Shown here one piece after another: positions 23,332 to 63,730 of a stretch of DNA of 64,000 nucleotides. Numbering within the stretch: position 1 is the first letter of the stretch; each line of letters opens with the position of its first letter. The notes under the pieces were generated by a model that saw nothing but the letters and a program-made list of their open reading frames with translations, was not told the origin of the DNA and did not search any database. Source of the DNA: Candidatus Nomurabacteria bacterium (GTDB lineage Bacteria > Patescibacteriota > Dojkabacteria > SC72 > JAHDCA01); contig JACKFQ010000002.1 of NCBI GenBank assembly GCA_020632395.1, forward strand, positions 172,971 through 236,970. The letters run 5' to 3'. The position numbers and the translations under genes were made by a program.

Positions 23332-23338
23332 TTACCAG

Positions 23339-44300: not shown

Positions 44301-44759
44301 TTATTTTACCATAAATGAGCGTCTCTCTCTATGCAACTCTCTTTCCAGATCCCTTTCTTTGATCCTCTTTTTCTTCTCATACGATCTTTTACCTTTTCCT
44401 AAACCTATCTCTAGCTTTACCATACCTCTTGCTAAAAATACGGATAAAGGAACGATCGTCATTCTATCACTTTCAGCTTTACGTTGTAATTCCCTCAATT
44501 CAGCCCTTTTTAATAGTAGTTTTCTACTTCTAAACGGGTCGTATCCCTCAACAGTTGCATATTTATATTTTGGGATGTCGGCATTCCACAAAAATGCTTC
44601 TCCACCAATTATCTTAACAAATGAATCAGAAATGTTCACTTGACCACTCTTGATCGCTTTGACCTCTGATCCGAGTAGTTGAATACCAGCTTCGTACTTT
44701 TCCTTGATCTCATAATTGAAATAGGCTTTCTTATTTTTGGTTATCAATTTGATTCCCAT
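44301..44759 (-). CDS. smpB: SsrA-binding protein SmpB
   Basis: KKAYFNYEIKEKYEAGIQLLGSEVKAIKSGQVNISDSFV...GYDPFRSRKLLL...EIGLGKGKRSYEKK is a canonical SmpB. Length 152 aa. Confidence 0.9.
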   Translation of the reverse strand: MGIKLITKNKKAYFNYEIKEKYEAGIQLLGSEVKAIKSGQVNISDSFVKIIGGEAFLWNADIPKYKYATVEGYDPFRSRKLLLKRAELRELQRKAESDRMTIVPLSVFLARGMVKLEIGLGKGKRSYEKKKRIKERDLERELHRERRSFMVK

Positions 44760-47464
44760 TATCGTAGTTTTACAGACCAGATCGTTGGCCCATCAAGTAT
44801 GTATAGCCTCGTTTCACCGGTATCAACCACGATATCTGAGACTGAAGAGAATGCAGAATCCCTCTCCCCCCGATAAACCAGACGTGACCTGAGAACCATT
44901 TCTCCCGGATGAAGTCCTGTTGTCTCATCAGGTTTCTCAAATGTCATTATTGAATCTCTATCAGTTTCAAATAGGTATAACTTATATTCGAGATTGATCC
45001 CTGCATACCCTGCTGTTACAGGCCCTATATCCCCTCTCAAGCCACTGATAGACCAAGGGTCTAGGATATATCCACCAACATCACGATTAAAATAGTATCG
45101 ATTGAATGTAGGACTCTCTGTCGAGAGCACATAACCGCTGAAATCTGCAAAGAAATCTGTAGGTACGAGGTTCTGATCCAATTCGAGAAATCGTGAAGCA
45201 AATCCGTACGAACCTGATGAGTATCTGACCGATCTATAAACTGCCAAAGACTTTGCATCAAGCAAATACACAAAGTCGTCCCCTCCTAAGATCGCAAATT
45301 CTGTTATATCCTCGATATTTTGGTCATCCAGATCATCACGTGTAATTCCACTTAATGCAACAAATGACCCTATATCAGATGCACCATTAGAATACGGTGC
45401 CATCAGAACACCAGAGATATCATCATAAACATAAACTCCATCATTCCCAACATCTACATACATCGGTGCCTGAAGAAGACCTTTCTCATCAGGGATTTTT
45501 GAGATAGTTCCAGTGCTGAGATTGTATCTATGTACAGTCTGTAAACCCGGATCAGTGATAAGCAGATACTCGACCAGGTTATCATCACTATATATCGCAA
45601 TATCAGAAGGTGTTTGAGAATTAGTACCTGCGAGAAGATCTTCAAGGACAGAAATGTTACCAGCTGATTCAGAAAGGATAGTAACTTTGTCCAATATGTC
45701 ATAAACTCCTAGAACTGAACCTTCAACCTGAGACAGGAGTTCTTGGTCTTTTTCATTTAATTTGCTTCTATCAAACCCTCCCTCTTCCAATTTCTTTTCT
45801 ACAGACAATAGTTTTAATTGTGCCTGTTCTGGATCTGTCTTTGCCTCTTTGTTTGCCTTTTCCAAGAGGGCAGAAACCTCGTCATAGATCGACAAGAACT
45901 GCTGGTGTACAAGACTTTTTTCTCTTACGTCTTTTGCAGCATTATATCCTGCATAAAGAGCTACGAGTACAAGAACAGTAGAGCCAAGAATGATAAATCT
46001 TTTGTTCCTCAGATTTTTTGTTCTGTAATCTCCTAAACGCATCTTCCTGATATCTGGAGTACCTATCCTAGTCTGCGAGAACTTAGCCCTCAACCGTTTG
46101 AACCAAACCTTCCTTCCATACCGATTTACTAAATACCGGTTGACCCATGCCTTCAGATTAGAGATCACTCTCGAAATGAATTTCTTAGTCCTTAACAGTA
46201 GTGGCATAAGGAAAGTTATGGTGTTTCGGACAAATTTCTTAATATAGAATAAAACCTTTGCAAATGCTGTTGTTGGTATTGGTTCAATAGGTTTGGCAAA
46301 CAAACCATCTGACATAGTTCGTGGTGAAGTGTCAGTTTTTTCAAGGGTATCCCCATGAGAGAGTCCGTTCAAGACACGATCTTCTGCCTCAGATTCATCT
46401 GTATCATACTTTCGCTGACCGACCTTATTGATATTTGCATCCTCATAGCTATTAGACGAAGCAACCTCATCATCTCTGATATCATGACCTTTCTGAACAG
46501 ATGAGAGAGGGATTTCGCTTGTTTTATCAACATCTGTAATGACTGTTTCAGTAGATAAGTTTTCTGTTTCTGATAGAGAGTCGTGTTCCACAGGATCATT
46601 ATCATCCCCTTCAAATTCTGTATATTCCATCATACCCACAGGTGTTTCTTCACTCTGCTCATCTGTAGATGAGAGATCTACTGGTTTAGTTTGCTCAAGG
46701 CCATGAACTTCTTCATGATCTTCATTAACTTCAGCACCTTCTTTATCTTCAGTCTCTTCATTATCTTCAGATAATGACACCACCTCGATCTCTACATCAG
46801 ATACTCCTTCTGCTTCTTTTTCAAATAGAACTACAGTTTGCAGATCAACACCTGTAGATGCAGAAACACATCCTTCACCTAATTCAAACTCGTGAGAATC
46901 GAGTAGTTGCATCATCCCAACAGGTGTGTGTATATCGGTGATATTGAGCTTACCGAGATAGTTTGGTGAAGAAAGCATTAGCACATCATCATCGCTTAGT
47001 TGAGTGCTACCTGTTTGTACATTGTTTTCTTTCAATAACGATGTGACATCCACTAACTCCATCTCATGAAGTATATGAATTTTGGATCCTCCCAGAAAAC
47101 CGAAGTATAGATTATTATCCTGATAGTGACAGGTTATGATATCAAGTTCCACACCATTAGAGGCATCCTCATCATTCTTGATCAACTCTAAAAGCTTTCT
47201 TTGTGCCTCCTCCAAGATCAGCTTCATCACTGATACACTACCCCCATCGTGTTGCATAAACTCGTCTAAGACGCCATTCCAAACAAAACGTGCGATATTA
47301 GATGCATCCAGATCTCCCGGACTATGTACAGATACTAAACCAAGCAAATATCCCCTAGCTGTATCTCCAGGGTCGAAGTGGTGAAAAGCACTTGTGACAC
47401 GATCCCCTCCCGCACTGCGAGAGAGAAAATCCTTTATGTATACTTTCATACTACTATTATGCAA
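44759..47464 (-). CDS. Large hypothetical protein (901 aa): cytoplasmic N-domain, acidic linker, single TM, extracellular beta-rich C-domain
   Basis: TM near residue 480 (FIILGSTVLVLVALYAGY). Acidic low-complexity region (EDKEGAEVNEDHEE...). The C-terminal half is rich in aromatic/Gly turns suggestive of beta-propeller/beta-sandwich repeats. No catalytic motif recognised. Confidence 0.45.
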   Translation of the reverse strand: MHNSSMKVYIKDFLSRSAGGDRVTSAFHHFDPGDTARGYLLGLVSVHSPGDLDASNIARFVWNGVLDEFMQHDGGSVSVMKLILEEAQRKLLELIKNDEDASNGVELDIITCHYQDNNLYFGFLGGSKIHILHEMELVDVTSLLKENNVQTGSTQLSDDDVLMLSSPNYLGKLNITDIHTPVGMMQLLDSHEFELGEGCVSASTGVDLQTVVLFEKEAEGVSDVEIEVVSLSEDNEETEDKEGAEVNEDHEEVHGLEQTKPVDLSSTDEQSEETPVGMMEYTEFEGDDNDPVEHDSLSETENLSTETVITDVDKTSEIPLSSVQKGHDIRDDEVASSNSYEDANINKVGQRKYDTDESEAEDRVLNGLSHGDTLEKTDTSPRTMSDGLFAKPIEPIPTTAFAKVLFYIKKFVRNTITFLMPLLLRTKKFISRVISNLKAWVNRYLVNRYGRKVWFKRLRAKFSQTRIGTPDIRKMRLGDYRTKNLRNKRFIILGSTVLVLVALYAGYNAAKDVREKSLVHQQFLSIYDEVSALLEKANKEAKTDPEQAQLKLLSVEKKLEEGGFDRSKLNEKDQELLSQVEGSVLGVYDILDKVTILSESAGNISVLEDLLAGTNSQTPSDIAIYSDDNLVEYLLITDPGLQTVHRYNLSTGTISKIPDEKGLLQAPMYVDVGNDGVYVYDDISGVLMAPYSNGASDIGSFVALSGITRDDLDDQNIEDITEFAILGGDDFVYLLDAKSLAVYRSVRYSSGSYGFASRFLELDQNLVPTDFFADFSGYVLSTESPTFNRYYFNRDVGGYILDPWSISGLRGDIGPVTAGYAGINLEYKLYLFETDRDSIMTFEKPDETTGLHPGEMVLRSRLVYRGERDSAFSSVSDIVVDTGETRLYILDGPTIWSVKLR

Positions 47465-48403: not shown

Positions 48404-50206
48404 CTATTTCCTTTCGATATTCAGAAATGCAAATCCGGATTGTGGTACTGCTAGATATCCAGGAGCACGGGTATTGAAGACAGCTTTGAAATCCGCTCCA
48501 GACAATGATACAACCCCACGATTTGTACTGAAAGAAATAAGGTCGGTTTGACCAGAGGAGCCTAAGCTGACTCCAGGATAGCCTATGATACTTGTCACTG
48601 GTGCGGAGAGGAGAGATCGCATCTCAGACATACTGTATGGGTTACCCGAAAAACCAGAGTAGGTACAGGTATTTACGGTAACAGGCAGGATCCTTCCATC
48701 ATCCACACTTCCTGTAACGCCTTCTCGATTCATTACCAACCAGGTATTTAGAATATCTGCCATCTCCTCCTGTGTCATCCATGGATATCGGCCACATGAA
48801 CTGGAAGAATCGCTATATCCACTTCTATACCATGCCTTGTAGAACCAGGGACTTCCTGCGATGCTCTCGTATGCTCTAGCAGTCCAATCTCCCCCTCCCG
48901 TACGATCTGTAGTATCCCAACCAGACGTATCAAGATATCCTCCTGCAGTGGAAGAATAGAAGGTGACGACATCCTCAAGCACCATACCACGAGTTTCATC
49001 TACAGCCTGTTTCCATAAAGCAGGTGGTGCATCTGCTTTCGGTTTATAAAAAACCTGACAAGCCTCAGTGACACAGATCTCGATATTATCTCTGTAATAT
49101 CTATACGCATATGTTCTAGCTGCAACAGCTTGCGCTTTCTGTGCCTCAAGACTCCAGGAGGATGGCATTTCAGCTATCCCATACAAATAATATGATTCAA
49201 AATCAACAGATCCCTGGCCAGCTACTTTGATCTTTCCTGAAGTATCTTTAAGTACAGGTGTTTTGCCGTAATATGCCTGTAAGATCTGCTGATAGTTCTG
49301 TCCGGATTCGGCTCTTGCCAATGCACCATATTGACTCATTCCTTTTCTATGGGTGTAAGCGCCAAAAGAAAACACCGCAAAAGAACCGGCCGGAGCACTT
49401 TCTCTAAAACCTGCTGCTGTTGAGTAGTAATCCCCTCCGGTAGGTAATGAGCCTACAGATGGGACATAAGCACCCGATCGAGCAAGAAGGATAGCCTCTT
49501 GTAGTTCGGTGATCTTACTGTTCAGCAAACCTATTTCATTTTGGAGTTGCCCTTTGGCAGCTGTGCGCGCGGCAATTTCTCTCTCTAACTTAGCTTGTTC
49601 TGATGACAATATCGCCTTTGATTCATCCAGAGCCTCTCCTTCAGCTTCTAACTTGATCCTCTGTTGCTCTAAAGCATCTCGTTTTACTTGCATATCGCCA
49701 AGTTGAACATTTAACTCTTCGATGTTCTGGCGTTGTTTCTCTAACGTATATTTCTTTAAGATATAGCTTCGCAACATACTTGACCCAGTATCTTCACTCA
49801 AAAACACATCGAACATATTTACCTTCGAGTTGATATATAGTCTCCGTGAGATCGCTTGAACCTGATCTATACGTTCGGTTATTAGATCCTCATGATACCT
49901 GATCTGTTCTTCCTTATTCTGAATATCAGCCTGTGTATCTGCAATATTCTGCTCCATCTCTTGGATCTGTTCTTCGATCGCAGAGATCTTTTGACTCAAG
50001 GTTAAAGAGCTGTTAAGAATCGACTCTATCTCGGATTGGGTTTTCTCTAGTATCTGTTGTTTGTATTCTTTCTCTTGTTGTGTCTTCTCCAATTCTTGCT
50101 CCAGATCATCAACCGAATCTTGTGAATGCACAATCAGCACAATATTACTGGATATCGTAGCAAGAGATACTGTTATGATGATAGCGATTAAGAATTTCTT
50201 CAACAT
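48404..50206 (-). CDS. Secreted coiled-coil protein with C-terminal SpoIID/LytB domain (peptidoglycan-remodelling)
   Basis: Signal/anchor LIAIIITVSLATISSNIVLIV. About 230 aa of heptad-rich coiled coil (QQILEKTQSEIES...). Then YYLYGIAEMPSSWSLEAQKAQAVAARTYAYRYY, matching the SpoIID signature (..E.P.sw..EALKAQAVAARTYA). Confidence 0.6.
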   Translation of the reverse strand: MLKKFLIAIIITVSLATISSNIVLIVHSQDSVDDLEQELEKTQQEKEYKQQILEKTQSEIESILNSSLTLSQKISAIEEQIQEMEQNIADTQADIQNKEEQIRYHEDLITERIDQVQAISRRLYINSKVNMFDVFLSEDTGSSMLRSYILKKYTLEKQRQNIEELNVQLGDMQVKRDALEQQRIKLEAEGEALDESKAILSSEQAKLEREIAARTAAKGQLQNEIGLLNSKITELQEAILLARSGAYVPSVGSLPTGGDYYSTAAGFRESAPAGSFAVFSFGAYTHRKGMSQYGALARAESGQNYQQILQAYYGKTPVLKDTSGKIKVAGQGSVDFESYYLYGIAEMPSSWSLEAQKAQAVAARTYAYRYYRDNIEICVTEACQVFYKPKADAPPALWKQAVDETRGMVLEDVVTFYSSTAGGYLDTSGWDTTDRTGGGDWTARAYESIAGSPWFYKAWYRSGYSDSSSSCGRYPWMTQEEMADILNTWLVMNREGVTGSVDDGRILPVTVNTCTYSGFSGNPYSMSEMRSLLSAPVTSIIGYPGVSLGSSGQTDLISFSTNRGVVSLSGADFKAVFNTRAPGYLAVPQSGFAFLNIERK

Positions 50207-50214
50207 AATGTCGA

Positions 50215-50880
50215 TCAGTAGTTTTTCACTTTATCAGACATCGAAACGGTATTGTATGCCTCTTCCTTATTGAATCTGTCATACCGTCTGAATACTGCCA
50301 ATGTACCTGCACCGATCATAAGCAGTGCCATACCCGCAACTGCAGGGTAATCATCCAAGAAGGAGGCTTGTGGAAGTGTCGTAGTAGTGTAAGAAGTACC
50401 AGAGGGAACATAATTTGAGATAGTATAATTGCCACCAACAAGTGAGTCGACCACAACTGAATCATCCGCATTCTGCATTGTCATACTGACAGTTCCGTTA
50501 CCTGTTGTACGAAAGACCAATTTTGCTATCGTGCCACTATTTGGTAGTTTTCCATCAGACTGAACACTCGCCAGACACAAAATACTTAAACGCCCAGAAG
50601 TAGTTTTATTTACAACAAGGGTTCCACAACCTAACGTTCCAGCAGAATAGCTAGAAAACTCTACAGGTCCAGTGTAGATCAGATCTATGTCAAATCCAAC
50701 TACTGGGTCACCTGTATTGTTTACCACGACATCTATGAAGATATTTTGAGAAAACGTGCCTGTCGCAGGAGAAAGATTGATCGCTGCTCCGGCATAGACA
50801 CTCTGCAATGGGGAAAATAGGAGTAGAAACATCACTACTGCGACTTTGGATAGAAAGACTGGAGTTGTGAGTATTTTCAT
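50215..50880 (-). CDS. Secreted beta-rich protein with cleavable signal peptide and a C-terminal motif-TM-basic tail (LPQAS..hydrophobic..RRYDR)
   Basis: Signal peptide VAVVMFLLLFSPLQSVYAGA. Ig/cohesin-like Thr/Gly/Val-rich body. C-terminus TTTLPQASFLDDYPAVAGMALLMIGAGTLAVFRRYDRFNKEE... resembles a sorting signal, but the motif is not LPXTG and the tail is long. Confidence 0.45.
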   Translation of the reverse strand: MKILTTPVFLSKVAVVMFLLLFSPLQSVYAGAAINLSPATGTFSQNIFIDVVVNNTGDPVVGFDIDLIYTGPVEFSSYSAGTLGCGTLVVNKTTSGRLSILCLASVQSDGKLPNSGTIAKLVFRTTGNGTVSMTMQNADDSVVVDSLVGGNYTISNYVPSGTSYTTTTLPQASFLDDYPAVAGMALLMIGAGTLAVFRRYDRFNKEEAYNTVSMSDKVKNY

Positions 50881-50897: not shown

Positions 50898-51500
50898 TTA
50901 TAATGGTTGACCTACTGGTAGATACTGCATATCAGGTGATAAGAGATTTTCACTTGATCCTACTTCTAGAACGGTACTTTGATTGCTATTTTGATCATTT
51001 ACCACTAATTCAGCCGATGTATCAGGGTCATAGATTATCGTCCCTAATTCAATTGTGCCATCTATTACACTACTCGCATTTCCAGGAAACCTAAAAAATA
51101 CCAGATTTAGTATATTGTCAGCATAAGTGTAATAACACTCGAATTCTGGATCACAGATAACATCTTTTATGTCGAGATTGCCATTGATATACATATCAAA
51201 TTCTGCTCCTGCAAGTATAGTCGGCTTAGATAAGACCATTTCCAATACGCCCTCACCTATAGTAGCATTGTTCAGTCTCACAACAGCGACATTACCTACC
51301 GGATTAACTACATTATCTGTAGTAGTTGTCGATGTTCCATAGATCTGTGGTTCAGAAGGAGATTTATCTGAAGAAATTGTGATAAGCCCATCGACACCTG
51401 TCAGAAAAACGTAGAAGAAGAACAGAAATGAGCCGAGCGAGACTAAAACCAGACTCTTTAACTGTTTCTCTTGCTCTGTTTCATTCATTACTTTAGACAT
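50898..51500 (-). CDS. N-terminally anchored beta-rich protein (200 aa), possibly pilus-associated
   Basis: TM SLVLVSLGSFLFFFYVFLTGV followed by a soluble beta-rich domain. It lies directly downstream of the pilin array on the same strand. Confidence 0.4.
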   Translation of the reverse strand: MSKVMNETEQEKQLKSLVLVSLGSFLFFFYVFLTGVDGLITISSDKSPSEPQIYGTSTTTTDNVVNPVGNVAVVRLNNATIGEGVLEMVLSKPTILAGAEFDMYINGNLDIKDVICDPEFECYYTYADNILNLVFFRFPGNASSVIDGTIELGTIIYDPDTSAELVVNDQNSNQSTVLEVGSSENLLSPDMQYLPVGQPL

Positions 51501-51603: not shown

Positions 51604-51966
51604 TTAGATCTGAGCTTGGATGATATTTCCAAGCACAAACTTGACAAGAAGTACGGACACGAAACAGATGATCAAACCAATTACTGCATATGTTATCCCT
51701 TTCGTAGCCTTTTCAACCTTACTCTCATCCCCACCGGAGATTATGTATAAAATTCCGTTGTAAACGAGGAATACCACTGCGATAAGACCCGCCATTCCAA
51801 TTGCAAGACTTATCACTCTATTTACAAAAGTTATCAGATCGCTATCTCCAGTGGGATTAGGTGGTAAAAAGCTCAAAAATTCTACCGCTCTAACAGGTAG
51901 GGATAACACTGAGAAGATCGATAAAACGATGAACGATCGTACAGCCACCTTATTAACCATTTTCAT
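51604..51966 (-). CDS. VirB2/TrbC-like T4SS pilin paralog 1
   Basis: Signal peptide (..SIFSVLSLPVRA), then hydrophobic helix - GGDESKVEKATKG loop - second hydrophobic helix (LISLAIGMAGLIAVVFLVYNGILYIISGGDESKVEKATKGITYAVIGLIICFVSVLLVKFVL). Shares the family signature with five neighbours. Confidence 0.65.
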   Translation of the reverse strand: MKMVNKVAVRSFIVLSIFSVLSLPVRAVEFLSFLPPNPTGDSDLITFVNRVISLAIGMAGLIAVVFLVYNGILYIISGGDESKVEKATKGITYAVIGLIICFVSVLLVKFVLGNIIQAQI

Positions 51967-52043
51967 ACTATTTGTTGTGATGTAATATTATCTAATTTCG
52001 CAAACATCATTTCTAAGATCCTGTCTTGACGATATCTTTCGTG

Positions 52044-52358
52044 TTATGTTTCCAAGAATTTAACAACAGAGAAGAGTATCATTCCAAAGATCGACAAAAA
52101 GATCAGTCCCAAAACTGCCCAAGTAAGTATCCCTTGAGCCTTCTTGACTTTGGCTGGATCTCCTCCAGACATCATCCATACATACCCTCCATACACCATA
52201 TAACCTAACGCAAGCAAACCTCCAAACGGTAAAAGAAGAGCCATGATCCTATCAAAGATCGCAGTAAGACCGTCTATTCTAGGTGGCGGGGCTGCAAGAG
52301 CCACCCCGGGTAAGAGTAGATACAGTCCAATTAACGATATCGAGAGTACTCTTTTCAT
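52044..52358 (-). CDS. VirB2/TrbC-like T4SS pilin paralog 2
   Basis: Signal peptide LLLPGVALAA, then ..LLPFGGLLALGYMVYGGYVWMMSGGDPAKVKKAQGILTWAVLGLIFLSIFGMILF. Confidence 0.65.
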   Translation of the reverse strand: MKRVLSISLIGLYLLLPGVALAAPPPRIDGLTAIFDRIMALLLPFGGLLALGYMVYGGYVWMMSGGDPAKVKKAQGILTWAVLGLIFLSIFGMILFSVVKFLET

Positions 52359-52628
52359 TTATACGCTTTGAATAATATTTTCTAATATAAACCTTACAAT
52401 AAGCGGTGATATAAATGCAATAATTAATCCCAGAACGGTATAGATCATCATTTTTTGTGCTTTTTCAGCCTTTTCACCTCCAGCGGAAATGATATATGTA
52501 AATCCGGCATAGATCAGAAATATCACTGCAAGTAGACCTGTTAAAGCAACAACTAATTCTATCGTTGATTGAGCGAATACTATCAGATCAGTATATCCCG
52601 TATTGTTTAAGCTACTAATTTCGAACAT
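52359..52628 (-). CDS. VirB2/TrbC-like T4SS pilin paralog 3 (no obvious signal peptide)
   Basis: ELVVALTGLLAVIFLIYAGFTYIISAGGEKAEKAQKMMIYTVLGLIIAFISPLIVRFIL. The gene is contiguous with paralog 2, with no gap between them. Confidence 0.6.
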   Translation of the reverse strand: MFEISSLNNTGYTDLIVFAQSTIELVVALTGLLAVIFLIYAGFTYIISAGGEKAEKAQKMMIYTVLGLIIAFISPLIVRFILENIIQSV

Positions 52629-52707
52629 AACCTTGATAACTCACTTTAAAGAACAAGACACCCGTTGGGCAGGGTGTCTTGAAATTGTTAATTGCAAAGA
52701 TCCTGAC

Positions 52708-53067
52708 TTAAACCTTGAGAACTTGTTTAAGTACAAACTCAACGATCAGAACAGCAATGAAGCAGATGATAAGACCAATGACTGAGTACTGTATACCTTT
52801 AGTAGCTTTTTCCACCTTACCTTCATCACCTGATGCAAGGATATACTGAACACCACTATAGACCAGTACACCTACAGCTATAAGTCCTGCCAATCCGATA
52901 GCGAGATTTAAAGTATTTCTAATAAATTCGATCAATTCACCACCTGCTTGGTTTGTTATACCTTGAATATAGTTACTAGGAGGCTGACCTTGTGCCATAA
53001 CAGAAGCAACTGCTGTCTGCATGATGACGGAAGCTGAAACCACATACTTAGCAATTTTCTTGAACAT
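52708..53067 (-). CDS. VirB2/TrbC-like T4SS pilin paralog 4
   Basis: From ATG 53067 the product is MFKKIAKYVVSASVIMQTAVASVMAQG (signal peptide), then ..LNLAIGLAGLIAVGVLVYSGVQYILASGDEGKVEKATKGIQYSVIGLIICFIAVLIVEFVL. The track ORF, which extends to 53151, starts at an upstream alternative codon. Confidence 0.65.
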   Translation of the reverse strand: MFKKIAKYVVSASVIMQTAVASVMAQGQPPSNYIQGITNQAGGELIEFIRNTLNLAIGLAGLIAVGVLVYSGVQYILASGDEGKVEKATKGIQYSVIGLIICFIAVLIVEFVLKQVLKV

Positions 53068-53162
53068 ACTAGAATTGCATAAAATTATTTTTATAGGATA
53101 GAGCATTATATTACTTCGACCTACAATTTGCAACATAATAGCTCCTTCCAATTAGTGTATCA

Positions 53163-53510
53163 TCAGATGAGAACTGTATCAATAATGTATAACAGGATCA
53201 TCCTTGATATAAAAACTATCACTAAACCTATAACTGTATTGGTGATAATATTTGTTGCTTTTGTGATCTTATCCGGATCCCCTCCAGCGAGGATAAAGTT
53301 ATACCCTGCGTAAACGAGCAGGATAACAGCAACTAAGGCAGAAAACCCAGTGAACCAACCGATCGCAACCTGGATCTTGACGATCACATCATCTAAACTA
53401 CCCGGTCCGTAGCCTATACATACACCCATCCAACAAGATGCAGATAATCCTGTGCTGAACTCTCGGATCTTTTTTTCCAACCTGCTTTTTGTATTATCTA
53501 TCAAGATCAT
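53163..53510 (-). CDS. VirB2/TrbC-like T4SS pilin paralog 5
   Basis: ..VAIGWFTGFSALVAVILLVYAGYNFILAGGDPDKITKATNIITNTVIGLVIVFISRMILLYII. ATGA overlap with paralog 6. Confidence 0.6.
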   Translation of the reverse strand: MILIDNTKSRLEKKIREFSTGLSASCWMGVCIGYGPGSLDDVIVKIQVAIGWFTGFSALVAVILLVYAGYNFILAGGDPDKITKATNIITNTVIGLVIVFISRMILLYIIDTVLI

Positions 53511-53881
53511 GGTATGTTCGGCAAATTTAATAGGTTCTGAATGATCACTAAAACAGCTACAGAGAGTATGATCAGACCGAAGCCAAGTATAGCATTTGTT
53601 AAAACCTCCCTAGCCTGTCCGAGTTTCTCAGGATCTCCTTGACTAGTGATAAGTAGGAACCCTGCATAGCCACTCAAACCGATCAGTGCAAAAACAGAGA
53701 GCGGTATAGATAACTCAAGAACCCCTTTCACGAAAGTAGTTTGGTCAGTTGCCGCTGAAATATCATTTATTCTGTCGCTTAAAACATCCGCACGAGCCAC
53801 AAAAGGCGTGCTAAATGACACGAACAAGATGAACATGGTGAACGCCATTACTAATTTGTACTTCGAAGTTGTAGTTTTCAT
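53507..53881 (-). CDS. VirB2/TrbC-like T4SS pilin paralog 6 (first gene of the array)
   Basis: Signal peptide LVMAFTMFILFVSFSTPFVARA, then ..LSIPLSVFALIGLSGYAGFLLITSQGDPEKLGQAREVLTNAILGFGLIILSVAVLVII. Confidence 0.65.
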   Translation of the reverse strand: MKTTTSKYKLVMAFTMFILFVSFSTPFVARADVLSDRINDISAATDQTTFVKGVLELSIPLSVFALIGLSGYAGFLLITSQGDPEKLGQAREVLTNAILGFGLIILSVAVLVIIQNLLNLPNIP

Positions 53882-53918
53882 TATTTTCCGACTTTGCCGG
53901 GTGATTATACCCTATAAC

Positions 53919-56900
53919 CTATATATCAGCCAACGCATCCTCACAGATCTCACGATAATCACAGTACGAGCAATGAAAGCCTGGCGTTGCGACGAAATCC
54001 ATCTGTCGTATCCTCTCGACCAGGTGCAAGATATGTTCTTTTACCTCATCTTTTCTTTCTTGCCCAATATTTACGCTTATTTTTGCACCATGCTCAACAA
54101 AAATCAAACTTGCAGATCTCACCTTATACCCAAAAACCTCTTCTGCGACAATAGAGTATATCGCAAGCTGGACATTGTCACGAACATCCGCCTCTGACTT
54201 TAGCTTTCCGGTTTTATAGTCTATTAGTTCAACGATCTTCTGCCCATTTTTCTCCTCTAAGACATCTATCCTATCTATCATTCCTTTTAGTATGATGTCT
54301 TTTAGTTGATATCTAAAGGACACTTCTAAACCGACAGTCACACTTTGAGGATCGAACTGTTCCCTATAGAAATCCTTTAAGATACTTTGGCCGAATTCCT
54401 TTCTGGCTTTCTCGTGCTCCAAACTATCATAGCCTTCCGTTATCCATTTCTGATCGTAATACTGCAAAAGATCGTTGAGTTGAGGCTCCTTGGCAAAGCC
54501 CTGTAGACCTTCTTGGTAATTTTTCAATTGAGAATAAAATGAACGCAATGAGTTATGAATACTTAAACCAAAGGCAAGAGAGGAGCTGGGACGTCCAGGG
54601 ATCTTGTATATGTAACTGTATTTATATCGTTTAGGGCATGTCTCATAAGTATCAAGTTGTGAATAACTGACCGTTTGAGGATCCAATCCCCTCAACTGTT
54701 TGAATTCAATATCATCATTTTCGGTAGAGACATGTACTACGAAATCTGATTTTTCATTAGCCGAATCTTTGTCTGCCCCGAATTCCTCTACAACCTTCCT
54801 GTTCAACAGTTCATCAAGAAATACACTCGGTTTCTTTGCTCGCTTAGCATCGCCATAGAAACGAGCAGCTGTAAGGTAAAGCAATTCTTGAGCTCGGGTA
54901 GCCCCCACATAGAACAAACGTCGCTCCTCTCGTCTATGCTCTTCAGAGGTATCAACATCAGCTATGTGATCTTTGATCAATGCGTCAGGGATAGGGATAC
55001 TATCGCCTCGATTCCTTGTAGGGAATCTTTCTGATACAAGGTTTACTAGGAATACAACAGGGAATTCAAGCCCTTTCGACCTATGAACGCTCATGATATT
55101 TACCGCATCATACCCTTCTAATGCATCCGACTCTGTAGAAGGATTCTCCCCGATCTCGATACTGTAATTCAGATAATCCACATAATCAGAAACTGAGGCT
55201 CCATGATTCGAATCCTCAAAAGATTTGATCATCTCGAAATATTTACTGATATTTTGAACCTGGAAAAGCGCTTGTGCATCATCCTCCTTAGATAACAGGC
55301 TCTTCATTATCCCGCTTTCTTTGAAGTATTCGAATAATGTTTCACCTATCGATGAACCTGATCGCAACATCGACATACCTTTTCCAATAAGTTGTAAAAG
55401 TTCTTTAAGGTGCTCTCTATGTTCTTCAGAAACTATCTCTTTTAGAAGGTTACTGGGCTCACCATCGATCGAAAGGTCTTCACCAACAGTACAACTCCAC
55501 TGATCCTCAAGAAATCTCATCACGGGGGTCTTCAATCTCCGAGCGCTTCGCATAATATCCACCAATTCCCTAGCGGTAAGTCGCCAAAGATCCATCTTTA
55601 ACAATCCATACATACTCAGATCATCTGTATGATCCGCAAGGATCCGTAGATAAGAAATAAGTTCGGCGATCTCAGGTCTGCTGTATAACCCTTTGGGACC
55701 AGCATATTTGAATGGGATCCCATAATGCTTTAAGGCTTGGACAAATGGCTCTGCATGACTATTTGCTCTAGAAAGGATGGCGATGTCTGAAAAACGCATA
55801 ACCTCTCTCTCTGCGTTATCTACATCCACAAACATAGCCTGCCCCTTATCATCGAACTGTTTCTTAACTATATCGCTTCCTCCGTTAACCTTATCGATAT
55901 TACCTGTCAATCGAAGGATCTCTCTGGCAACCAGATCTGCCTCCTCAGAACCGGTTTCAGCTACGAGTAGTTTTACAGGTTCTGCAATATCCTGATCAAA
56001 TACCTTTCTGGATATAAGACGTTTATCTACAGACTCAGTTACCTCTAACCGATCTGGATCATTATTTTTGATCAGTTGATATGCAGAATCAAGGATTCCC
56101 TGTCTGGAGCGATAATTCGATGTCAACACCACCCTCTTTGCTTTAGGGTATGCATCCTTAAAATGCAAAATATTGGAGATCGCCGCGCCTCGAAATTTGT
56201 ATATCGCCTGATCATCATCACCAACTACTGTAACATTTGCAGAATTCCTCTCCTGCAAGCTACTTTTCTCAACGGTTTGGCCTAATGCGAGCAGATTCAC
56301 AAGGACGCTTTGTGTGTAATTTGTATCTTGGAATTCATCAACCAAGATATATTTATACTTCTGATGATATTTCTGTAAAATATTTGGTCGTTCCCTTAAT
56401 AATCGTAAAGTCTGCATTATCAGATCACCAAAGTCCAAATTGGATTCAGATATCTTCAGTTTTGTATACGCTTCGTATGTTCCAGCTAATTCAAGTGCTT
56501 GTTTCTTCATCGCGATCTCTTCCTCGGATGTCTCAGGGAGAGTAGACGCATATGATCGATAATCCTCAGGAAAGACATCTTCATCTTGTAATCTTGAGAA
56601 GTGCTTCAGTATAGCTGTAATGTTTGCTGAAGGCTTTCCTGTAGGTCGTAGTTCATCTAAGGGAAATTCAAATAAGTGCCTTCTAAAGAAAATGTAACTT
56701 TGTGCCTCTGACATCAGGTCGAAATCGATATCTAAACCGATATACAAGCCATCCTGCCGAAGGATCGAATCACAAAACGAATGGAAGGTCATGATATCTA
56801 CCTCTTCATATCCTATCGGCATCTCCTGATCTACACGTTCTATCATTTCTGAGGAGGCCTTTTCTGTGAATGTAAGTGCCAATATCTCAGAGGCTTTTGC

Positions 56901-57038
56901 TTCTCCAGACCTTAACAGATCGATTATTCGCTGGGTGATGACTGCGGTTTTGCCTGTACCTGCGCCAGCAATTATCAGGAGCGGAGAACCCCTGTGTTTT
57001 ACTGCTGACAGCTGTTCATCATTTAATTTGATCTCCAT
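53919..57038 (-). CDS. UvrD/PcrA-family helicase fused to a C-terminal Cas4/AddB-type PD-(D/E)xK nuclease with a 4-Cys cluster
   Basis: Helicase motifs: LLIIAGAGTGKT (I), ILVDEFQDTN (II), VTVVGDDDQAIYKFRGA, SNYRS (IV), VMSVHRSKGLEF (VI). C-terminal nuclease: ETCPKRYKY...GMIDRIDVLEEKNGQKIVELIDYKTGK...QLAIYSIV...FHCSYCDYREIC. Confidence 0.8.
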   Translation of the reverse strand: MEIKLNDEQLSAVKHRGSPLLIIAGAGTGKTAVITQRIIDLLRSGEAKASEILALTFTEKASSEMIERVDQEMPIGYEEVDIMTFHSFCDSILRQDGLYIGLDIDFDLMSEAQSYIFFRRHLFEFPLDELRPTGKPSANITAILKHFSRLQDEDVFPEDYRSYASTLPETSEEEIAMKKQALELAGTYEAYTKLKISESNLDFGDLIMQTLRLLRERPNILQKYHQKYKYILVDEFQDTNYTQSVLVNLLALGQTVEKSSLQERNSANVTVVGDDDQAIYKFRGAAISNILHFKDAYPKAKRVVLTSNYRSRQGILDSAYQLIKNNDPDRLEVTESVDKRLISRKVFDQDIAEPVKLLVAETGSEEADLVAREILRLTGNIDKVNGGSDIVKKQFDDKGQAMFVDVDNAEREVMRFSDIAILSRANSHAEPFVQALKHYGIPFKYAGPKGLYSRPEIAELISYLRILADHTDDLSMYGLLKMDLWRLTARELVDIMRSARRLKTPVMRFLEDQWSCTVGEDLSIDGEPSNLLKEIVSEEHREHLKELLQLIGKGMSMLRSGSSIGETLFEYFKESGIMKSLLSKEDDAQALFQVQNISKYFEMIKSFEDSNHGASVSDYVDYLNYSIEIGENPSTESDALEGYDAVNIMSVHRSKGLEFPVVFLVNLVSERFPTRNRGDSIPIPDALIKDHIADVDTSEEHRREERRLFYVGATRAQELLYLTAARFYGDAKRAKKPSVFLDELLNRKVVEEFGADKDSANEKSDFVVHVSTENDDIEFKQLRGLDPQTVSYSQLDTYETCPKRYKYSYIYKIPGRPSSSLAFGLSIHNSLRSFYSQLKNYQEGLQGFAKEPQLNDLLQYYDQKWITEGYDSLEHEKARKEFGQSILKDFYREQFDPQSVTVGLEVSFRYQLKDIILKGMIDRIDVLEEKNGQKIVELIDYKTGKLKSEADVRDNVQLAIYSIVAEEVFGYKVRSASLIFVEHGAKISVNIGQERKDEVKEHILHLVERIRQMDFVATPGFHCSYCDYREICEDALADI

Positions 57039-57050
57039 ATATACATTCTA

Positions 57051-57860
57051 TCATTTAACAGATGGGGTTGGCTTTGAAATATCAAAGTCTCGTAATTTCT
57101 CTTGTCGAAAATGAGAAGGGTAGAATTCTATCTTTCCAGATAAATACCCCTTGAATAACCTCTTAAACTCTGGTTTATGACCAAAAATCAGCATATAAAG
57201 TAGTTGTGCTAGAAATGCAATTATTTCAAAGGGAAAAAGTAGGACTGACATCTTTTTCAAGGGCGAGTTAGATATTTGAGTAGGCAGAGTATTCACACCA
57301 AATTTCGAGACTAATTCCGAATTCGATCTGATCAGAGCGTTTTTAGGTAATACACCATACACCTTCTCAAGATAAACAAGTTCATTGAACGTAAAGATGT
57401 CATGCTCAGACATTTGCATACCTCGTTCTTCAACGATCATATTTATACAATATTTATCTTTCTGATCGATATCTCCGTACCACACTGCCTTATTACCCAA
57501 AAGCAGTTTCACCACACCCCTTACTATCCATGCGGTGTGATCTGTACAGACTAGGAAAACATCGATATCATCGTTTTCTTTTGCAATTCCTGCTGCAACA
57601 GAACCCGATATCCCAACAAATCTAATAAAAGGAACATTAGCAATGGTTAGAAGCTCTTTCTTGGCTTTTTTTAATTTTCGTTCACTCGCCATTGAACCCT
57701 TCCATTTTACAGGAATATCATGATCTTGGATGACCTTACGGACATTCGGAGATCCTCCCCACATCTCAAAAATGTGTTGTGCATCAAGCTGTCCATGCAT
57801 CGAATGACGGAACTCCTTCAAATCACCGATTCCTTTGTTAACATCCCTTAATCTTGACAC
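57051..57860 (-). CDS. Nucleotidyltransferase-fold protein (pol-beta-like GS...DxD motif); function unknown
   Basis: FIRFVGISGSVAAGIAKENDDIDVFLVCTD carries the minimal nucleotidyltransferase signature. No HEPN-like partner is visible. Confidence 0.4.
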   Translation of the reverse strand: MSRLRDVNKGIGDLKEFRHSMHGQLDAQHIFEMWGGSPNVRKVIQDHDIPVKWKGSMASERKLKKAKKELLTIANVPFIRFVGISGSVAAGIAKENDDIDVFLVCTDHTAWIVRGVVKLLLGNKAVWYGDIDQKDKYCINMIVEERGMQMSEHDIFTFNELVYLEKVYGVLPKNALIRSNSELVSKFGVNTLPTQISNSPLKKMSVLLFPFEIIAFLAQLLYMLIFGHKPEFKRLFKGYLSGKIEFYPSHFRQEKLRDFDISKPTPSVK

Positions 57861-57927: not shown

Positions 57928-59472
57928 ATGAGGCAACACCCGATCCCGCAAAACATATTAGACATTGAGTTCAAGCTGTTTACCAAGTTCACTATACGTG
58001 AATTTGCGTATATGGCTATCGGTATTGGGTTTGGCGGTATCTTCCTATATCTCTTTTCAAAAGGAGAGATCCCCGCTGTCATTGCACTACCAGTTTTCCT
58101 CATATCATCTGGGATAGGATTATTCTTGGGATTAGTCCCTATTAACGATCAAAATGCAGATGTGTTCCTGAGGAACTATTTCCTTGCAATCTCAAGACCA
58201 ACCCAAAGAGTATGGAAAGGAGAGCTATTTGACGAAAAGGTACAAGTGATTGCCCAACAGAAAGGTGTTTCGCTTGGAACCACAGGGACTATGGATAGAG
58301 ATGCAAATCTGAAATCTAACTCTAAGGTTATAGGTGGTACTGCAAAGAATCTCCCCACTACACAATTTATCGAAGAAGAAACTTTGTCAGAGATCGAGGA
58401 GGACGAAGCCGAACAGCTCGAACTTATCGATCAGATCGCAAAACAACAATTTGTTATGAATGCAGGTGACGATCTTTCAACAAGCCCTACCAAATCAACG
58501 GATACCAGGGAGATGACTAGCTCTACCCAAGCAGTAAACCCAAGTGAAGAAAAAGGCTCTAGCGGAGCAGTATTATCTGACGACGCAGTGCCATCTAGCG
58601 GAACCCTACCATCTGACGACACAGTGCCATCTGCAGAAGCGACAAATACCGTTGAGGCAACGAATCCTAGCGATACAACGAATCTCACCGTGGTAACAGA
58701 TCGTCCCCAAACAACAAGTTCTTCTGAAACAACGAATTTTAAAACGGTCGAAGAATCAGCCAATCCAACGGATGCGATAGAGCCTCAGGTCGCAAAATTT
58801 ACAGATGAGTTAGCTCCCAGAACAGAACTCGAGTTTACTTCTCCTGACCAGGAGACACCCGCTACGAACAATTTAGATGATGGCGGATTCTCTACTCAGA
58901 ACAACTCTCATCGATCTGACAAACCTCTCGTATCAGTAAACAATCCTTCCCTATCACCAGAAGCCATACCCGCATCATTAGACAACCCTTCCCTGTCACC
59001 AGGCGCCCCTTACAGATCCGAATATAATCCTCCTACATCAGTAGACAACCCTCTTGATCAGATCAAACCTGTACCAACAGTTCAAAATATACGATCCGAG
59101 CATGTAGATAAAGTTCCGGCAACCGGAGGATCCATTCAAGAGAACGATCTGATCACAATAACAAGCGAAACCGCAAAACCGGTTGCTACACAGGTGGAAG
59201 ATTACCCAGAGGACCCGGGTAATATTGCTATGTACCTGACAAATACGAACGGAGACCCGATCCCTCAAGCTATGACCCTGATAAAAGATAGTGCTGGTTC
59301 GATACTGCAAGTTATCCAATCCGACCCTCAAGGTTTGGTCTTACCTAACAAAAAGTTTGTAAAAGGGAAATACCTTGCTGAAATAAAACATGACAATGCA
59401 CACTTCCCTCGTGTAAACTTCATATTGGATGGAAACAAGTTACCAGTTGTAAATATAACCTCTATAAACTGA
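57928..59472 (+). CDS. PrgI/VirB3-like 2-TM membrane protein with a long Ser/Thr/Pro-rich extracytoplasmic extension
   Basis: N-terminal NILDIEFKLFTKFTIREFAYMAIGIGFGGIFLYLF....VIALPVFLISSGIGLFLGLVP has two TM helices spaced as in the PrgI family. The remaining 400 aa are low-complexity S/T/P/N-rich. It lies immediately upstream of the VirB4 pieces. Confidence 0.4.
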   Translation: MRQHPIPQNILDIEFKLFTKFTIREFAYMAIGIGFGGIFLYLFSKGEIPAVIALPVFLISSGIGLFLGLVPINDQNADVFLRNYFLAISRPTQRVWKGELFDEKVQVIAQQKGVSLGTTGTMDRDANLKSNSKVIGGTAKNLPTTQFIEEETLSEIEEDEAEQLELIDQIAKQQFVMNAGDDLSTSPTKSTDTREMTSSTQAVNPSEEKGSSGAVLSDDAVPSSGTLPSDDTVPSAEATNTVEATNPSDTTNLTVVTDRPQTTSSSETTNFKTVEESANPTDAIEPQVAKFTDELAPRTELEFTSPDQETPATNNLDDGGFSTQNNSHRSDKPLVSVNNPSLSPEAIPASLDNPSLSPGAPYRSEYNPPTSVDNPLDQIKPVPTVQNIRSEHVDKVPATGGSIQENDLITITSETAKPVATQVEDYPEDPGNIAMYLTNTNGDPIPQAMTLIKDSAGSILQVIQSDPQGLVLPNKKFVKGKYLAEIKHDNAHFPRVNFILDGNKLPVVNITSIN

Positions 59473-59476
59473 AGCC

Positions 59477-60106
59477 TTGAAAGCACAAACTAGAGCCAGG
59501 ATCACAACACCAACACAGGATCATCTTGATGTCCTAGATATCAAAGATGATCTTATCATAAGCAAAAATGGTACTGTCTCGATAGTCATCAAAACCAATG
59601 CCGTGAACTTTGATCTTCTTTCTGAACAGGAACAGGATAACAAGATATATGCTTTTGCAGGTATGTTGAATTCATTGAACTTCCATTTACAAATTCTGGT
59701 CATGACCGAAAGGATCGATATCGGTAATTACATAGAGTACTTACAAGCCCAGGCTCAGAGACAGATGTCTGACGGACTCAGACATCAGCTGTCGATCTAC
59801 ACTCAATTCATACAGAATCTTATCGTCACAAACGATGTATTAGATAAGAATTTCTATATCGTGGTACCTTATAACTCCGGAGGGGCAGCGGTGATTGGGG
59901 CTAAGATACGAAAGAACAACAACACACAACAATTACTCTCAGAAGAACAGAAACTTCGAATAATCGAACAGGGTAGGATCTTCCTACTTCCGAAGCGTGA
60001 CCATATCCTAAAACAACTAGGTCGGATGGGATTGATAGGGCATCAACTCACCACTACAGAACTGATCGAGCTTTTTTATAGTATTTATAATCCAGAGGAA
60101 GATTAA
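59477..60106 (+). CDS. VirB4/TraC-family N-terminal domain encoded as a separate ORF
   Basis: LDVLDIKDDLIISKNGTVSIVIKTNAVNFDLLSEQEQDNKIYAFAGMLNSLNFHLQILVMTERID matches the VirB4 N-domain pattern (I.....l.t.dG.l.....v.g..f.l.seee......f...L..L.....qi....r). The stop overlaps the next start (TAATG at 60104-60108). Confidence 0.55.
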   Translation: MKAQTRARITTPTQDHLDVLDIKDDLIISKNGTVSIVIKTNAVNFDLLSEQEQDNKIYAFAGMLNSLNFHLQILVMTERIDIGNYIEYLQAQAQRQMSDGLRHQLSIYTQFIQNLIVTNDVLDKNFYIVVPYNSGGAAVIGAKIRKNNNTQQLLSEEQKLRIIEQGRIFLLPKRDHILKQLGRMGLIGHQLTTTELIELFYSIYNPEED

Positions 60107-62923: not shown

Positions 62924-63730
62924 CTATTCAGGGTCTTCTAAACCAGCATTTGGGTCTACGACATGTTCTGCATTATCTTCATATTCACCATAAAAAGCCT
63001 TGGGATCAGGCAATCCGTCAATACACACCTCCCTCTCTAAATACTCAGTAGGATCTACCAGATCCCAATGAATATTTTTCAGTAAGCTAAAGTGAAGATG
63101 CACACCTCCCCTGACTTCTCCGGTTTGTCCCATCTTCGCGATAATTTGTCCACGACCAACCTCATCCCCTTCCTCAACATATATCTCATGAAGATGCCCA
63201 TAAACAGATATCAAACCATTCTCATGTTCTATCATAACTGTACGTGCCAAACCAGATCCTCCAGAATACACACCTGCAGGCGGACAAATTCCATAACAAC
63301 CTGCCAGTATAACCTTTCCTTTCTCTCCTGCCAGTATATTTGGATATGTGTGATCTGCTATATCGACGCCATTATGTACTTCATCAAAACATTGGGTTAC
63401 AGTACCAACCCCTCCCTCAACAGGCCAAGCCAAAGAGAACCCTTGATCAAGCTCTGCGATACTAGGATCAAGAGGTTTACCCTTGAGGATCTTATACCTT
63501 CCTATGTCATCGGCAATCTCTTCTATCTCCAAATCTGTTGTTTCTATAGATCCTTCCGGGTCTATCGATGTATCCGATACATTGATCGTACGATCAGATA
63601 CTGTATCTCCTAAGACAGAAGGGGTTGTTATTCCCACTGTTCCAAAGATGAAGTCGGCAGAGCTGATCATCACGATAGATAGCATGATATAAACAATCAC
63701 CCCAGAGATAACATAATCAAAGCGACTCAT
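62924..63730 (-). CDS. M23 (LytM-type) peptidoglycan metallo-endopeptidase, membrane-anchored
   Basis: TM VISGVIVYIMLSIVMIS. M23 motifs HNGVDIAD (HxGxD), VYGHLHEI, and GQTGEVRGGVHLHFSL (G.TG...G.HLHF). Confidence 0.8.
   Translation of the reverse strand: MSRFDYVISGVIVYIMLSIVMISSADFIFGTVGITTPSVLGDTVSDRTINVSDTSIDPEGSIETTDLEIEEIADDIGRYKILKGKPLDPSIAELDQGFSLAWPVEGGVGTVTQCFDEVHNGVDIADHTYPNILAGEKGKVILAGCYGICPPAGVYSGGSGLARTVMIEHENGLISVYGHLHEIYVEEGDEVGRGQIIAKMGQTGEVRGGVHLHFSLLKNIHWDLVDPTEYLEREVCIDGLPDPKAFYGEYEDNAEHVVDPNAGLEDPE

Follow-up and report, generated by a model that had tools for sequence, protein, structure and literature searches.

The DNA analysed here is a 64,000-nt stretch of contig JACKFQ010000002.1 from a Candidatus Nomurabacteria (Dojkabacteria) assembly, hereafter the window. 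On its minus strand, the segment 51604-53881 carries an array of six consecutive small open reading frames (ORFs) of 89-124 aa that are predicted to encode VirB2-like pilins of a type IV secretion system (T4SS). The array was located at the positions given in a preliminary description of this sequence, and its six ORFs, the overlap and the abutment between them, and all six of the loop sequences quoted there were found as stated. In the direction of transcription, paralog 1 (53507-53881, 124 aa) has a signal peptide ending ARA/D, two transmembrane (TM) helices with the loop SQGDPEKLGQARE and a C-terminal LPNIP; it is the most divergent type of the array. Paralog 2 (53163-53510, 115 aa) lacks a classical signal peptide and is the fastest-evolving copy. 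Its gene shares a 4-nt ATGA overlap with that of paralog 1 at 53507-53510. Paralog 3 (52708-53067, 119 aa from its ATG) gives the best family score. Paralog 4 (52359-52628, 89 aa) has no signal peptide, as is also the case for its orthologs, and its gene abuts that of paralog 5 (52044-52358, 104 aa, signal peptide ending ALA/A), the TAA stop of the former ending at 52359 and the ATG of the latter starting at 52358. Paralog 6 (51604-51966, 120 aa) is closest to paralogs 3 and 4. The mechanically defined ORF of paralog 3 extends from a TTG at 53151, and gene callers gave a protein of 142 aa. However, its true start should be the ATG at 53067, because the orthologs begin with the same MFKK/MLKK residues and because a conserved promoter-like element sits between the upstream in-frame starts and this ATG.

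The six proteins were assigned to a family by profile searches. The gathering score of PF18895 (T4SS_pilin), 26.6 bits, was passed by five of the six paralogs with 31.1-54 bits (paralog 2, 37.5; paralog 3, 54; paralog 4, 34.4; paralog 5, 31.1; paralog 6, 51.2). Paralog 1 by itself remained under this score with 22.1 bits; in a related Dojkabacteria contig (L011), its positional ortholog carries a PF18895 annotation, and scores of 27.8-28.1 bits were obtained for proteins of this subtype in two further loci (L007 and L010). Across the six proteins the E-values ranged from 1.8e-14 to 1.6e-4, and the predicted membership of the array in PF18895 is far beyond chance. All six also matched NF045849, the NCBIfam model of the Mbov_0395 family pilin-like conjugal transfer protein from Mycoplasma integrative and conjugative elements (ICEs), with E-values of 1e-9 to 2e-3 (4e-8 for paralog 1). 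None reached the equivalog cut-off of 40 bits (17.8-37.8 bits), and by these profiles the six proteins are homologous to NF045849 at the family level and are not equivalogs. The best window pilin had no tblastn match in the PLSDB plasmids, and therefore no direct sequence bridge to the PrgF-like genes of Gram-positive plasmids was obtained. The VirB2/TrbC-like pilin identity proposed in the preliminary description was thus upheld by the five PF18895 assignments, by weak matches to the TrbC/VirB2 and Mycoplasma ICE models and by T4SS genes within 4-10 kb. The contrary outcome it had named, a match to a holin-like or immunity family, did not occur.

The architecture of the paralogs was examined with a Kyte-Doolittle scan and a six-protein alignment. 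Two TM-like segments flanking a charged loop were found in all six copies. A leader-like N-terminal hydrophobic stretch was clear in three (53507-53881, 52044-52358, and 51604-51966), while that of 52708-53067 fell below the scan threshold, yet ends in an A-x-A-like site. The hairpin architecture described earlier was therefore confirmed for the whole array, but the statement that the signal peptide is absent in one copy was not, as two copies (52359-52628 and 53163-53510) have none. Pairwise identity among the six proteins was 20-53% (mean 33%). The invariant columns (Y69, G71, G79, K83, A87, G97, and L98, in the numbering of 51604-51966) lie where helix 1 ends, within the loop and where helix 2 begins. 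Because they cluster in and around the loop, the loop is the most conserved element of these proteins. This is the opposite of the earlier impression that the loops differ between copies; it is the mature N-terminal segment that varies most.

Related contigs (L011, and L015/L016 from NCBI Dojkabacteria assemblies) were retrieved via neighbouring genes. All three have the same order: UvrD-like helicase-nuclease, pilin array, 197-aa protein, 240/245-aa protein, SpoIID, bPH, DUF5657, large protein, SmpB, and type IV coupling protein (T4CP). Their arrays contain five pilins each, compared to six in the window. In a matrix of blastp bit scores, four of the first five paralogs had one-to-one, same-order orthologs in L011 and L015; the ortholog of paralog 2 was assigned by gene order, and its best bit score goes to a different gene. 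Identities between the window and L011/L015 were 40% for paralog 1, 29-30% for paralog 2, 55-57% for paralog 3, 54-56% for paralog 4, and 45-49% for paralog 5. This range of 29-57% compares with 29-59% for the neighbouring genes (UvrD 53%, SmpB 59%, and SpoIID 29%). Between L011 and L015, the pilins were 80-96% identical, compared to 70-77% for the neighbouring genes. No positional ortholog of 51604-51966 was present in L011, L015, or L016. It matched paralog 3 itself (61% blastp identity to 52708-53067 across 75 aa) and the orthologs of that paralog best, and it looks like a recent, lineage-specific extra copy of the type-3/4 lineage. These comparisons indicate that the five paralog types are old, individually conserved, kept in a fixed gene order across Dojkabacteria, and under purifying selection. 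Since the conserved orthologs occur in the same order, fixed non-redundant roles fit better than surface variation.

Inside the array, a promoter-like element (TTGCAA-17-TATAAT, 53105-53133, minus strand) was identified upstream of paralog 3 by pattern match and conservation. In L011 and L015, the paralog 3 ortholog is preceded by identical hexamers at identical spacing, and the alignment of this non-coding region contains the conserved blocks TGTTGCAAA and TAATATAATG. Directly 3' of paralog 3 lies a hairpin of 10 bp (6 GC) followed by TTCTTT (52654-52681, minus strand), which looks like a terminator or an attenuator. A further promoter-like site (TTGGCT-18-TATAAT, 53904-53933, minus strand), detected by consensus match only, is located upstream of the first pilin gene. 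Paralog 3 is probably transcribed separately and is probably the most abundant subunit. Because of its own conserved promoter and the following hairpin, we regard it as the candidate major pilin.

The array lies among genes whose products together are assigned to a monoderm-type T4SS (VirB4, TrsD-like, PrgI, T4CP, SpoIID, and M23). The VirB4-type T4SS ATPase (60106-62526, plus strand; PF19044, 94.6 bits, and PF12846) is encoded four genes (6.2 kb) from the array. On the same strand precede it a PrgI-family (VirB3-like) membrane protein (57928-59472; PF12666, 30.1 bits) and a 209-aa TrsD/TraC-like protein resembling the N-terminal part of VirB4 (59477-60106; PF26593, with sub-threshold matches to NF041427 TrsD and NF045975). 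The PrgI-family protein is far longer than canonical VirB3 or PrgI: its 514 aa comprise two N-terminal TM helices, ~350 aa of Ser/Thr/Pro/Asp-rich low complexity, and a short C-terminal domain. Downstream of the array and on its strand are the genes for a SpoIID-domain protein with a coiled-coil N-terminus (48404-50206; PF08486, 60.7 bits) and for a VirD4/TraG-like coupling ATPase (T4CP, 40928-43495; PF02534, PF10412, and PF12696). The SpoIID gene is syntenic in all Dojkabacteria loci compared, and its product may serve the locus as an enzyme of cell-wall remodelling. A candidate for a functional analog of VirB1 is a secreted M23 peptidase (62924-63730, minus strand; PF01551, 77 bits); peptidases adjoining virB4 are essential in Southlakia epibionticum (PMC12102498). 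No relaxase was found among the ORFs surveyed in the window. The window itself is chromosomal and carries the genes for PNPase, IF-2, NusA, DnaJ, AlaRS, SmpB, and others; its proteins are deposited, as exact matches, as hypothetical proteins of Candidatus Dojkabacteria bacterium, encoded on a 1.09-Mb contig.

Pilin arrays of this kind have been described before. When 3,035 genomes of Patescibacteria were searched with PF18895 and profiles related to it, 383 assemblies proved to contain 441 arrays, each of 2-11 pilin genes; within arrays, identity averaged 25% and did not exceed 54%. The authors suggested that such arrays help in adapting to different hosts (Quinonero-Coronel et al. 2025, PMC12102498). 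An array was defined there as at least two pilin genes in tandem or one non-pilin gene apart, in a genome with VirB4 and within 20 coding sequences of virB4. In the window we found six consecutive pilins, a virB4 gene four genes away, PrgI, TrsD-like and VirB4 proteins, and a Patescibacteria host; the locus is thus a further instance of the published type. Like the arrays already known (including those of S. epibionticum ML1 and the 'Sec secreted array' of TM7x), it is a chromosomal PF18895 tandem near a monoderm-type VirB4, without a relaxase among the surveyed ORFs, and its copies are of similarly low identity (mean 33% and maximum 53%). In contrast to them, it belongs to the Dojkabacteria, which are not discussed in the main text of that study, and a UvrD/PD-(D/E)XK gene separates the array from the divergently transcribed virB4 operon. 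What our analysis adds to the published arrays is the positional orthology, the evidence of purifying selection and the internal conserved promoter. The pilin series in the T4SS cluster of S. epibionticum is essential (Wang et al. 2023, PMC10633639); it consists of six VirB2-like pilins with conserved structure and divergent sequence (2025 review, PMC12857230).

Other pilin systems are more distant. The Gram-negative VirB2/TrbC/TraA pilins (PF04956) are likewise small mature proteins with two TM helices and a short charged loop, and a leader is present in some copies. However, the window proteins score below the threshold of that family (at most 18.6 vs 27.9 bits) and form multiple co-located paralogs in a monoderm without outer-membrane core components, and nothing suggested enzymes for cyclisation or acetylation. 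PrgF of the Enterococcus plasmid pCF10 and the Mbov_0395 family share the two TM helices and the charged loop, and their genes are likewise set in T4SS loci of the MPF-FATA type, in bacteria that are monoderm or lack a wall. One functional copy is usual there, and the systems are conjugative. The NF045849 scores in the window (at most 37.8) stay below 40 bits. PrgF is a VirB2-like pilin essential for conjugation, and PrgF-like proteins occur in most Gram-positive T4SSs (December 2025 preprint, bioRxiv 10.64898/2025.12.18.695078). The effector T4SSs of Bartonella and Anaplasma also have tandemly amplified, divergent virB2 genes beside the T4SS, but variation there is thought to serve immune evasion, whereas here the orthologs are conserved with no sign of diversification. 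The origin of the pilin-like component was left open in PMC12102498. The NF045849 matches of the window pilins are accompanied by a protein (59477-60106) that resembles TrsD and the N-terminal part of the mycoplasma VirB4 model, a hint that this component came by inheritance, together with a T4SS of the MPF-FATA type, and not from diderm systems.

Two larger genes follow the array on the same strand, at 50898-51500 (200 aa) and 50215-50880 (221 aa); these coordinates, as well as the LPQAS-TM-RRYDR tail of the second protein, agreed exactly with the preliminary description. The 221-aa protein consists of a signal peptide, a predicted cohesin-fold module, a Thr-rich linker, the LPQAS motif, a TM helix (residues 178-198), and the charged tail RRYDR. 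Its AlphaFold2 model had a predicted local distance difference test (pLDDT) score of 85, and 38 of its first 39 Foldseek matches in the PDB were cohesins or cohesin-like proteins, the other being an adhesin domain. The E-values of these matches ranged from 2e-8 (best) to 1e-4, with template modelling scores (normalised to target) of ~0.5-0.73 for most single-module chains. Among them were the sortase-anchored scaffoldin ScaE (2zf9) and the autonomous cohesin 4n2o. The Pfam Cohesin profile (PF00963) did not reach its cut-off of 24.1 bits with this protein (15.5 bits, E 0.021). In the 200-aa protein, an N-terminal TM anchor is followed by a Ser/Thr linker of low complexity and by a beta-sandwich in which a pair of Cys residues is conserved. 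Its AlphaFold2 model was of modest quality (mean pLDDT 61, core 64-88). The top Foldseek matches of this model were cohesins with E-values of ~1e-3, and a pilus-protein domain appeared as one weak match at rank 29; this protein may weakly be called cohesin-like. The two proteins showed no significant similarity to each other by BLASTP, and their shared cohesin-like fold therefore rests on structure prediction only. In place of the Ig-like domains assumed earlier, both models point to cohesin-like beta-sandwiches.

A word-indexed homolog search with the 221-aa protein returned only the protein itself, and an exhaustive HMMER search yielded 65 homolog clusters, most of them 200-240 aa long with the same layout. 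In 41 aligned homologs, the sorting motif had L in 39, and P, T/A/S, and G/A/S/N at their positions in all 41. The LPQAS of the window protein aligned with LPETG, LPQTS, LPSTA, and similar motifs, followed by a TM helix and a charged tail, and the two cysteines were invariant. A sortase gene is present in the window (28948-29757, plus strand; PF04203, 85.6 bits, and TIGR01076, 62.9 bits, above cut-off). The earlier guess of a sorting signal in 50215-50880 is borne out by this conservation and by the presence of the sortase gene. We predict that the 221-aa protein is a sortase-anchored single-cohesin protein, with the sortase as the candidate enzyme for it. A sortase-assembled pilus of the LPQAS protein was also considered and rejected, as the fold is that of a cohesin and not of CnaA/CnaB. 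The family has two features that are atypical of sortase substrates: the cytoplasmic tail after the TM helix is unusually long (20-35 aa), and many homologs end in a conserved K-x-x-E-K-(K/R)-F-like pattern.

The closest known counterparts are the ScaE-type single-cohesin scaffoldins of Ruminococcus flavefaciens and the autonomous cohesins. They share with the 221-aa protein the signal peptide, one cohesin-fold module, the linker, and an LPXTG-type signal, and distant homologs of the 221-aa protein adjoin dockerin-bearing proteins. In contrast to them, the window protein has a sub-threshold Pfam Cohesin match, an LPQAS motif, and the unusually long tail with the conserved terminal E-K-x-F-like pattern. 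It also has no cellulosome context and is paired with a second membrane-anchored cohesin-like protein. No dockerin was detected in the window by Pfam searches of all large ORFs and by a regular expression for the calcium-binding loop. A homolog of the 200-aa protein lies directly upstream of a homolog of the 221-aa protein in L011, L015, L016, L012, and L018; the last two have no pilin genes in the vicinity. Elsewhere, homologs of the 221-aa protein adjoin proteins with Dockerin_1, BNR, or Cohesin plus Dockerin domains. We conclude that the downstream pair is an independent surface-docking module whose adjacency to the array is lineage-specific synteny.

Taken as a whole, the evidence makes it likely that the six ORFs are a VirB2-like array of the Patescibacteria T4SS_pilin family beside a monoderm-type T4SS, with non-redundant paralogs and a separate downstream pair. 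Orthologs in the same order, purifying selection and an internal promoter that is conserved all suggest that the paralogs would be non-redundant parts of differing abundance rather than variable alternatives. By analogy with VirB2/TraA, and as proposed for PrgF, the subunits would enter the membrane with their loop facing the cytoplasm. Extraction by the VirB4-driven machine would then build a helical tube from them, with the loop lining its lumen and the variable N-terminal segments on its exterior. Such a tube could span the cell wall toward a host bacterium. Within it, the paralogs most likely would have distinct structural roles, with 52708-53067 as the likely abundant major subunit and the others as minor or specialised ones. 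A bolder scheme can be drawn, in which a heteropolymeric monoderm T4SS pilus of fixed composition is built from 52708-53067 as the separately transcribed major subunit and four conserved minor ones, with the 53507-53881 type, whose members in other lineages bear large Cys-rich ectodomains, serving as adaptor or adhesin, while the cohesin pair docks the conduit or dockerin-tagged cargo at the epibiont-host interface. In its entirety, we consider this scheme a rather improbable speculation.

Several observations weigh against the preferred interpretation. To our knowledge, a pilus of this family has never been seen in any Patescibacterium. All six proteins were below the 27.9-bit cut-off of TrbC/VirB2 (PF04956), with 18.6 bits (E 0.0022) for 52359-52628 as the best score and at most 12.3 bits for the other five, so that their kinship to this family would be remote at best. 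A profile of 18 such pilin proteins found no related entry among the PDB sequences, and hence no sequence-related solved structure. By hydropathy, 52359-52628 and 53163-53510 have no recognisable signal peptide. A VirB6-like polytopic protein, the proposed assembly platform, was not found near the array within the window; in a hydropathy scan of nine large ORFs, the sole polytopic protein was a DUF4153 protein at 9931-11901. The assignment of the major pilin derives from promoter and hairpin patterns only, and the hairpins at the same position in L011 and L015 (10-11 bp) differ in sequence and fail the T-tract criterion. The near-invariance of the array across six environmental same-strain contigs (one single-nucleotide polymorphism) comes from a sample that is biased because the contigs were chosen by exact identity to one pilin. 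The separation of the downstream pair from the pilins relies on one well-covered pilin-free locus (L012) and several short contigs.

Alternative explanations of the array differ in how they account for these data. It is hardly credible that the ORFs encode small membrane proteins of an unrelated kind (holins or bacteriocin-immunity proteins, for example) whose only likeness to pilins is hydrophobicity. Short two-TM proteins do yield many weak, composition-driven matches, as seen in the sub-threshold Pfam list, but five of the six pass a curated family score, a second and independent pilin-like model (NF045849) is matched consistently, and linkage to T4SS genes recurs in several genomes. No holin or immunity family was among the Pfam matches of the six ORFs, and these identities were rejected as effectively ruled out by the PF18895 and NF045849 matches. 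The main rival is that the proteins are membrane-embedded two-TM components of the T4SS channel (compare VirB3/PrgI and CDS13/15 of the mycoplasma ICE) that form no extracellular pilus. We judge it unlikely, although it has more in its favour than the other alternatives. It would agree with the lack of an experimental pilus in Patescibacteria, with the matches of all six proteins to a Mycoplasma ICE family whose corresponding mycoplasma proteins are described as VirB3-like, and with the two copies without a signal peptide. Furthermore, in relatives the hairpin is joined to large Cys-rich ectodomains, for which a filament may offer little room; however, the N-terminus is outside in known pili, so N-terminal domains could decorate such a filament. 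A separate PrgI/VirB3-like gene is already present at the locus, and the conserved basic loop, the Gly-rich helices and the processed-leader architecture match VirB2-type pilins. In addition, the loop of the two-TM protein PrgF was exposed in a pilus-like lumen, as judged by mutagenesis and labelling (bioRxiv 10.64898/2025.12.18.695078). Another possibility is that the paralogs can replace one another and thereby alter the surface of the pilus, either to adapt to a range of hosts or for evasion, as has been proposed for the VirB2 paralogs of Bartonella and Anaplasma. The idea is raised in PMC12102498, and the preliminary description had mentioned surface variation. The paralogs do differ most in the mature N-terminal segment, which is external in known conjugative pili, and one lineage-specific duplication (51604-51966) has occurred. 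However, the five paralog types have positional orthologs that keep their order and are conserved like the housekeeping neighbours or more, and the array is essentially invariant across the six environmental contigs. ORF and Pfam surveys around the array revealed no inverted repeats, recombinase, or silent cassettes, and the reported essentiality of the S. epibionticum array is a better fit with non-redundancy. Surface variation by these paralogs thus appears quite unlikely.

For the downstream pair, the preliminary description had considered pilus tip or minor subunits. In a fuller form of this idea, the two proteins would be tip, minor or anchoring subunits associated with the T4SS pilus and would correspond in function to VirB5 or to PrgA/B/C, which are LPXTG proteins. 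Gram-positive T4SS operons typically include LPXTG-anchored surface proteins as accessory parts, the pair is located on the same strand between the array and SpoIID in four Dojkabacteria loci, and an adhesin for the Patescibacteria T4SS has not been identified in the literature. Nevertheless, the pair also recurs away from pilin genes (L012 and L018), and other homologs stand beside Dockerin_1, BNR, or Cohesin proteins. The cohesin fold is a protein-docking module with no similarity to VirB5 or PrgB; the absence of a detectable dockerin from the window likewise counts against this role. A function of the pair in the pilus is accordingly a poor fit, and we give it little credence next to the independent docking module.

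A large part of bacterial diversity belongs to the Patescibacteria, which live attached to host cells. The T4SS and the pilin array are essential in the only species that is tractable. The locus described here leaves that picture unchanged, and its value is that of comparative material from Dojkabacteria. With non-redundancy suggested for the paralogs, fewer hypotheses are left to test, whether by structural modelling or in Southlakia. The cohesin pair draws attention to a docking module, anchored by sortase, in genomes of the candidate phyla radiation, and this module may merit its own survey.

Relatives of paralog 1 were observed in more distant Patescibacteria loci, where the PF18895 hairpin forms the C-terminal part of 193-364-aa proteins beside a SpoIID homolog (L007:8796-9890, L010:5832-6779, and L010:5247-5828, all on the minus strand). 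These hairpins belong to the same subtype as 53507-53881 (loop G(N/D)PE, C-terminal LPGF/LPNIP) and are preceded by large Cys-rich N-terminal regions and Pro/Thr linkers. The proteins would be pilin-domain fusions that display an ectodomain. L007, together with L008 and L009 (CAZVTT010000001.1, CAZPNL010000039.1, and CAYNJY010000004.1, respectively), is titled 'uncultured Gammaproteobacteria bacterium'. This label looks wrong because the three records encode the SpoIID/bPH/SmpB synteny and the PF18895 pilins that are typical of Patescibacteria.

Some other genes of the window also deserve description. Between the array and the prgI-virB4 operon, 53919-57038 (minus strand) encodes a 1039-aa UvrD helicase fused to a PD-(D/E)XK/Cas4-like nuclease (AddB/AdnA-like), and this gene holds its place directly upstream of the array in L011 and L015. 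The gene between it and the divergent prgI operon (57051-57860, minus strand) is kept in strain-level contigs; it encodes a 269-aa protein with weak similarity to nucleotidyltransferases (Pol-beta-like) and a C-terminal TM helix. A 901-aa protein with no Pfam match (44759-47464, minus strand) is syntenic between DUF5657 and SmpB in all Dojkabacteria loci. Its N-terminal domain is followed by a highly acidic segment of low complexity, then by a basic region whose single TM helix lies near residue 490; the C-terminal domain is large. Finally, three huge proteins of 1323, 1436, and 1135 aa (19360-27649, minus strand, and 31195-34602, plus strand) have an N-terminal signal or anchor, no Pfam domain, and in no case a C-terminal sorting signal; their genes flank those for DnaJ and for the sortase and a solute-binding protein.

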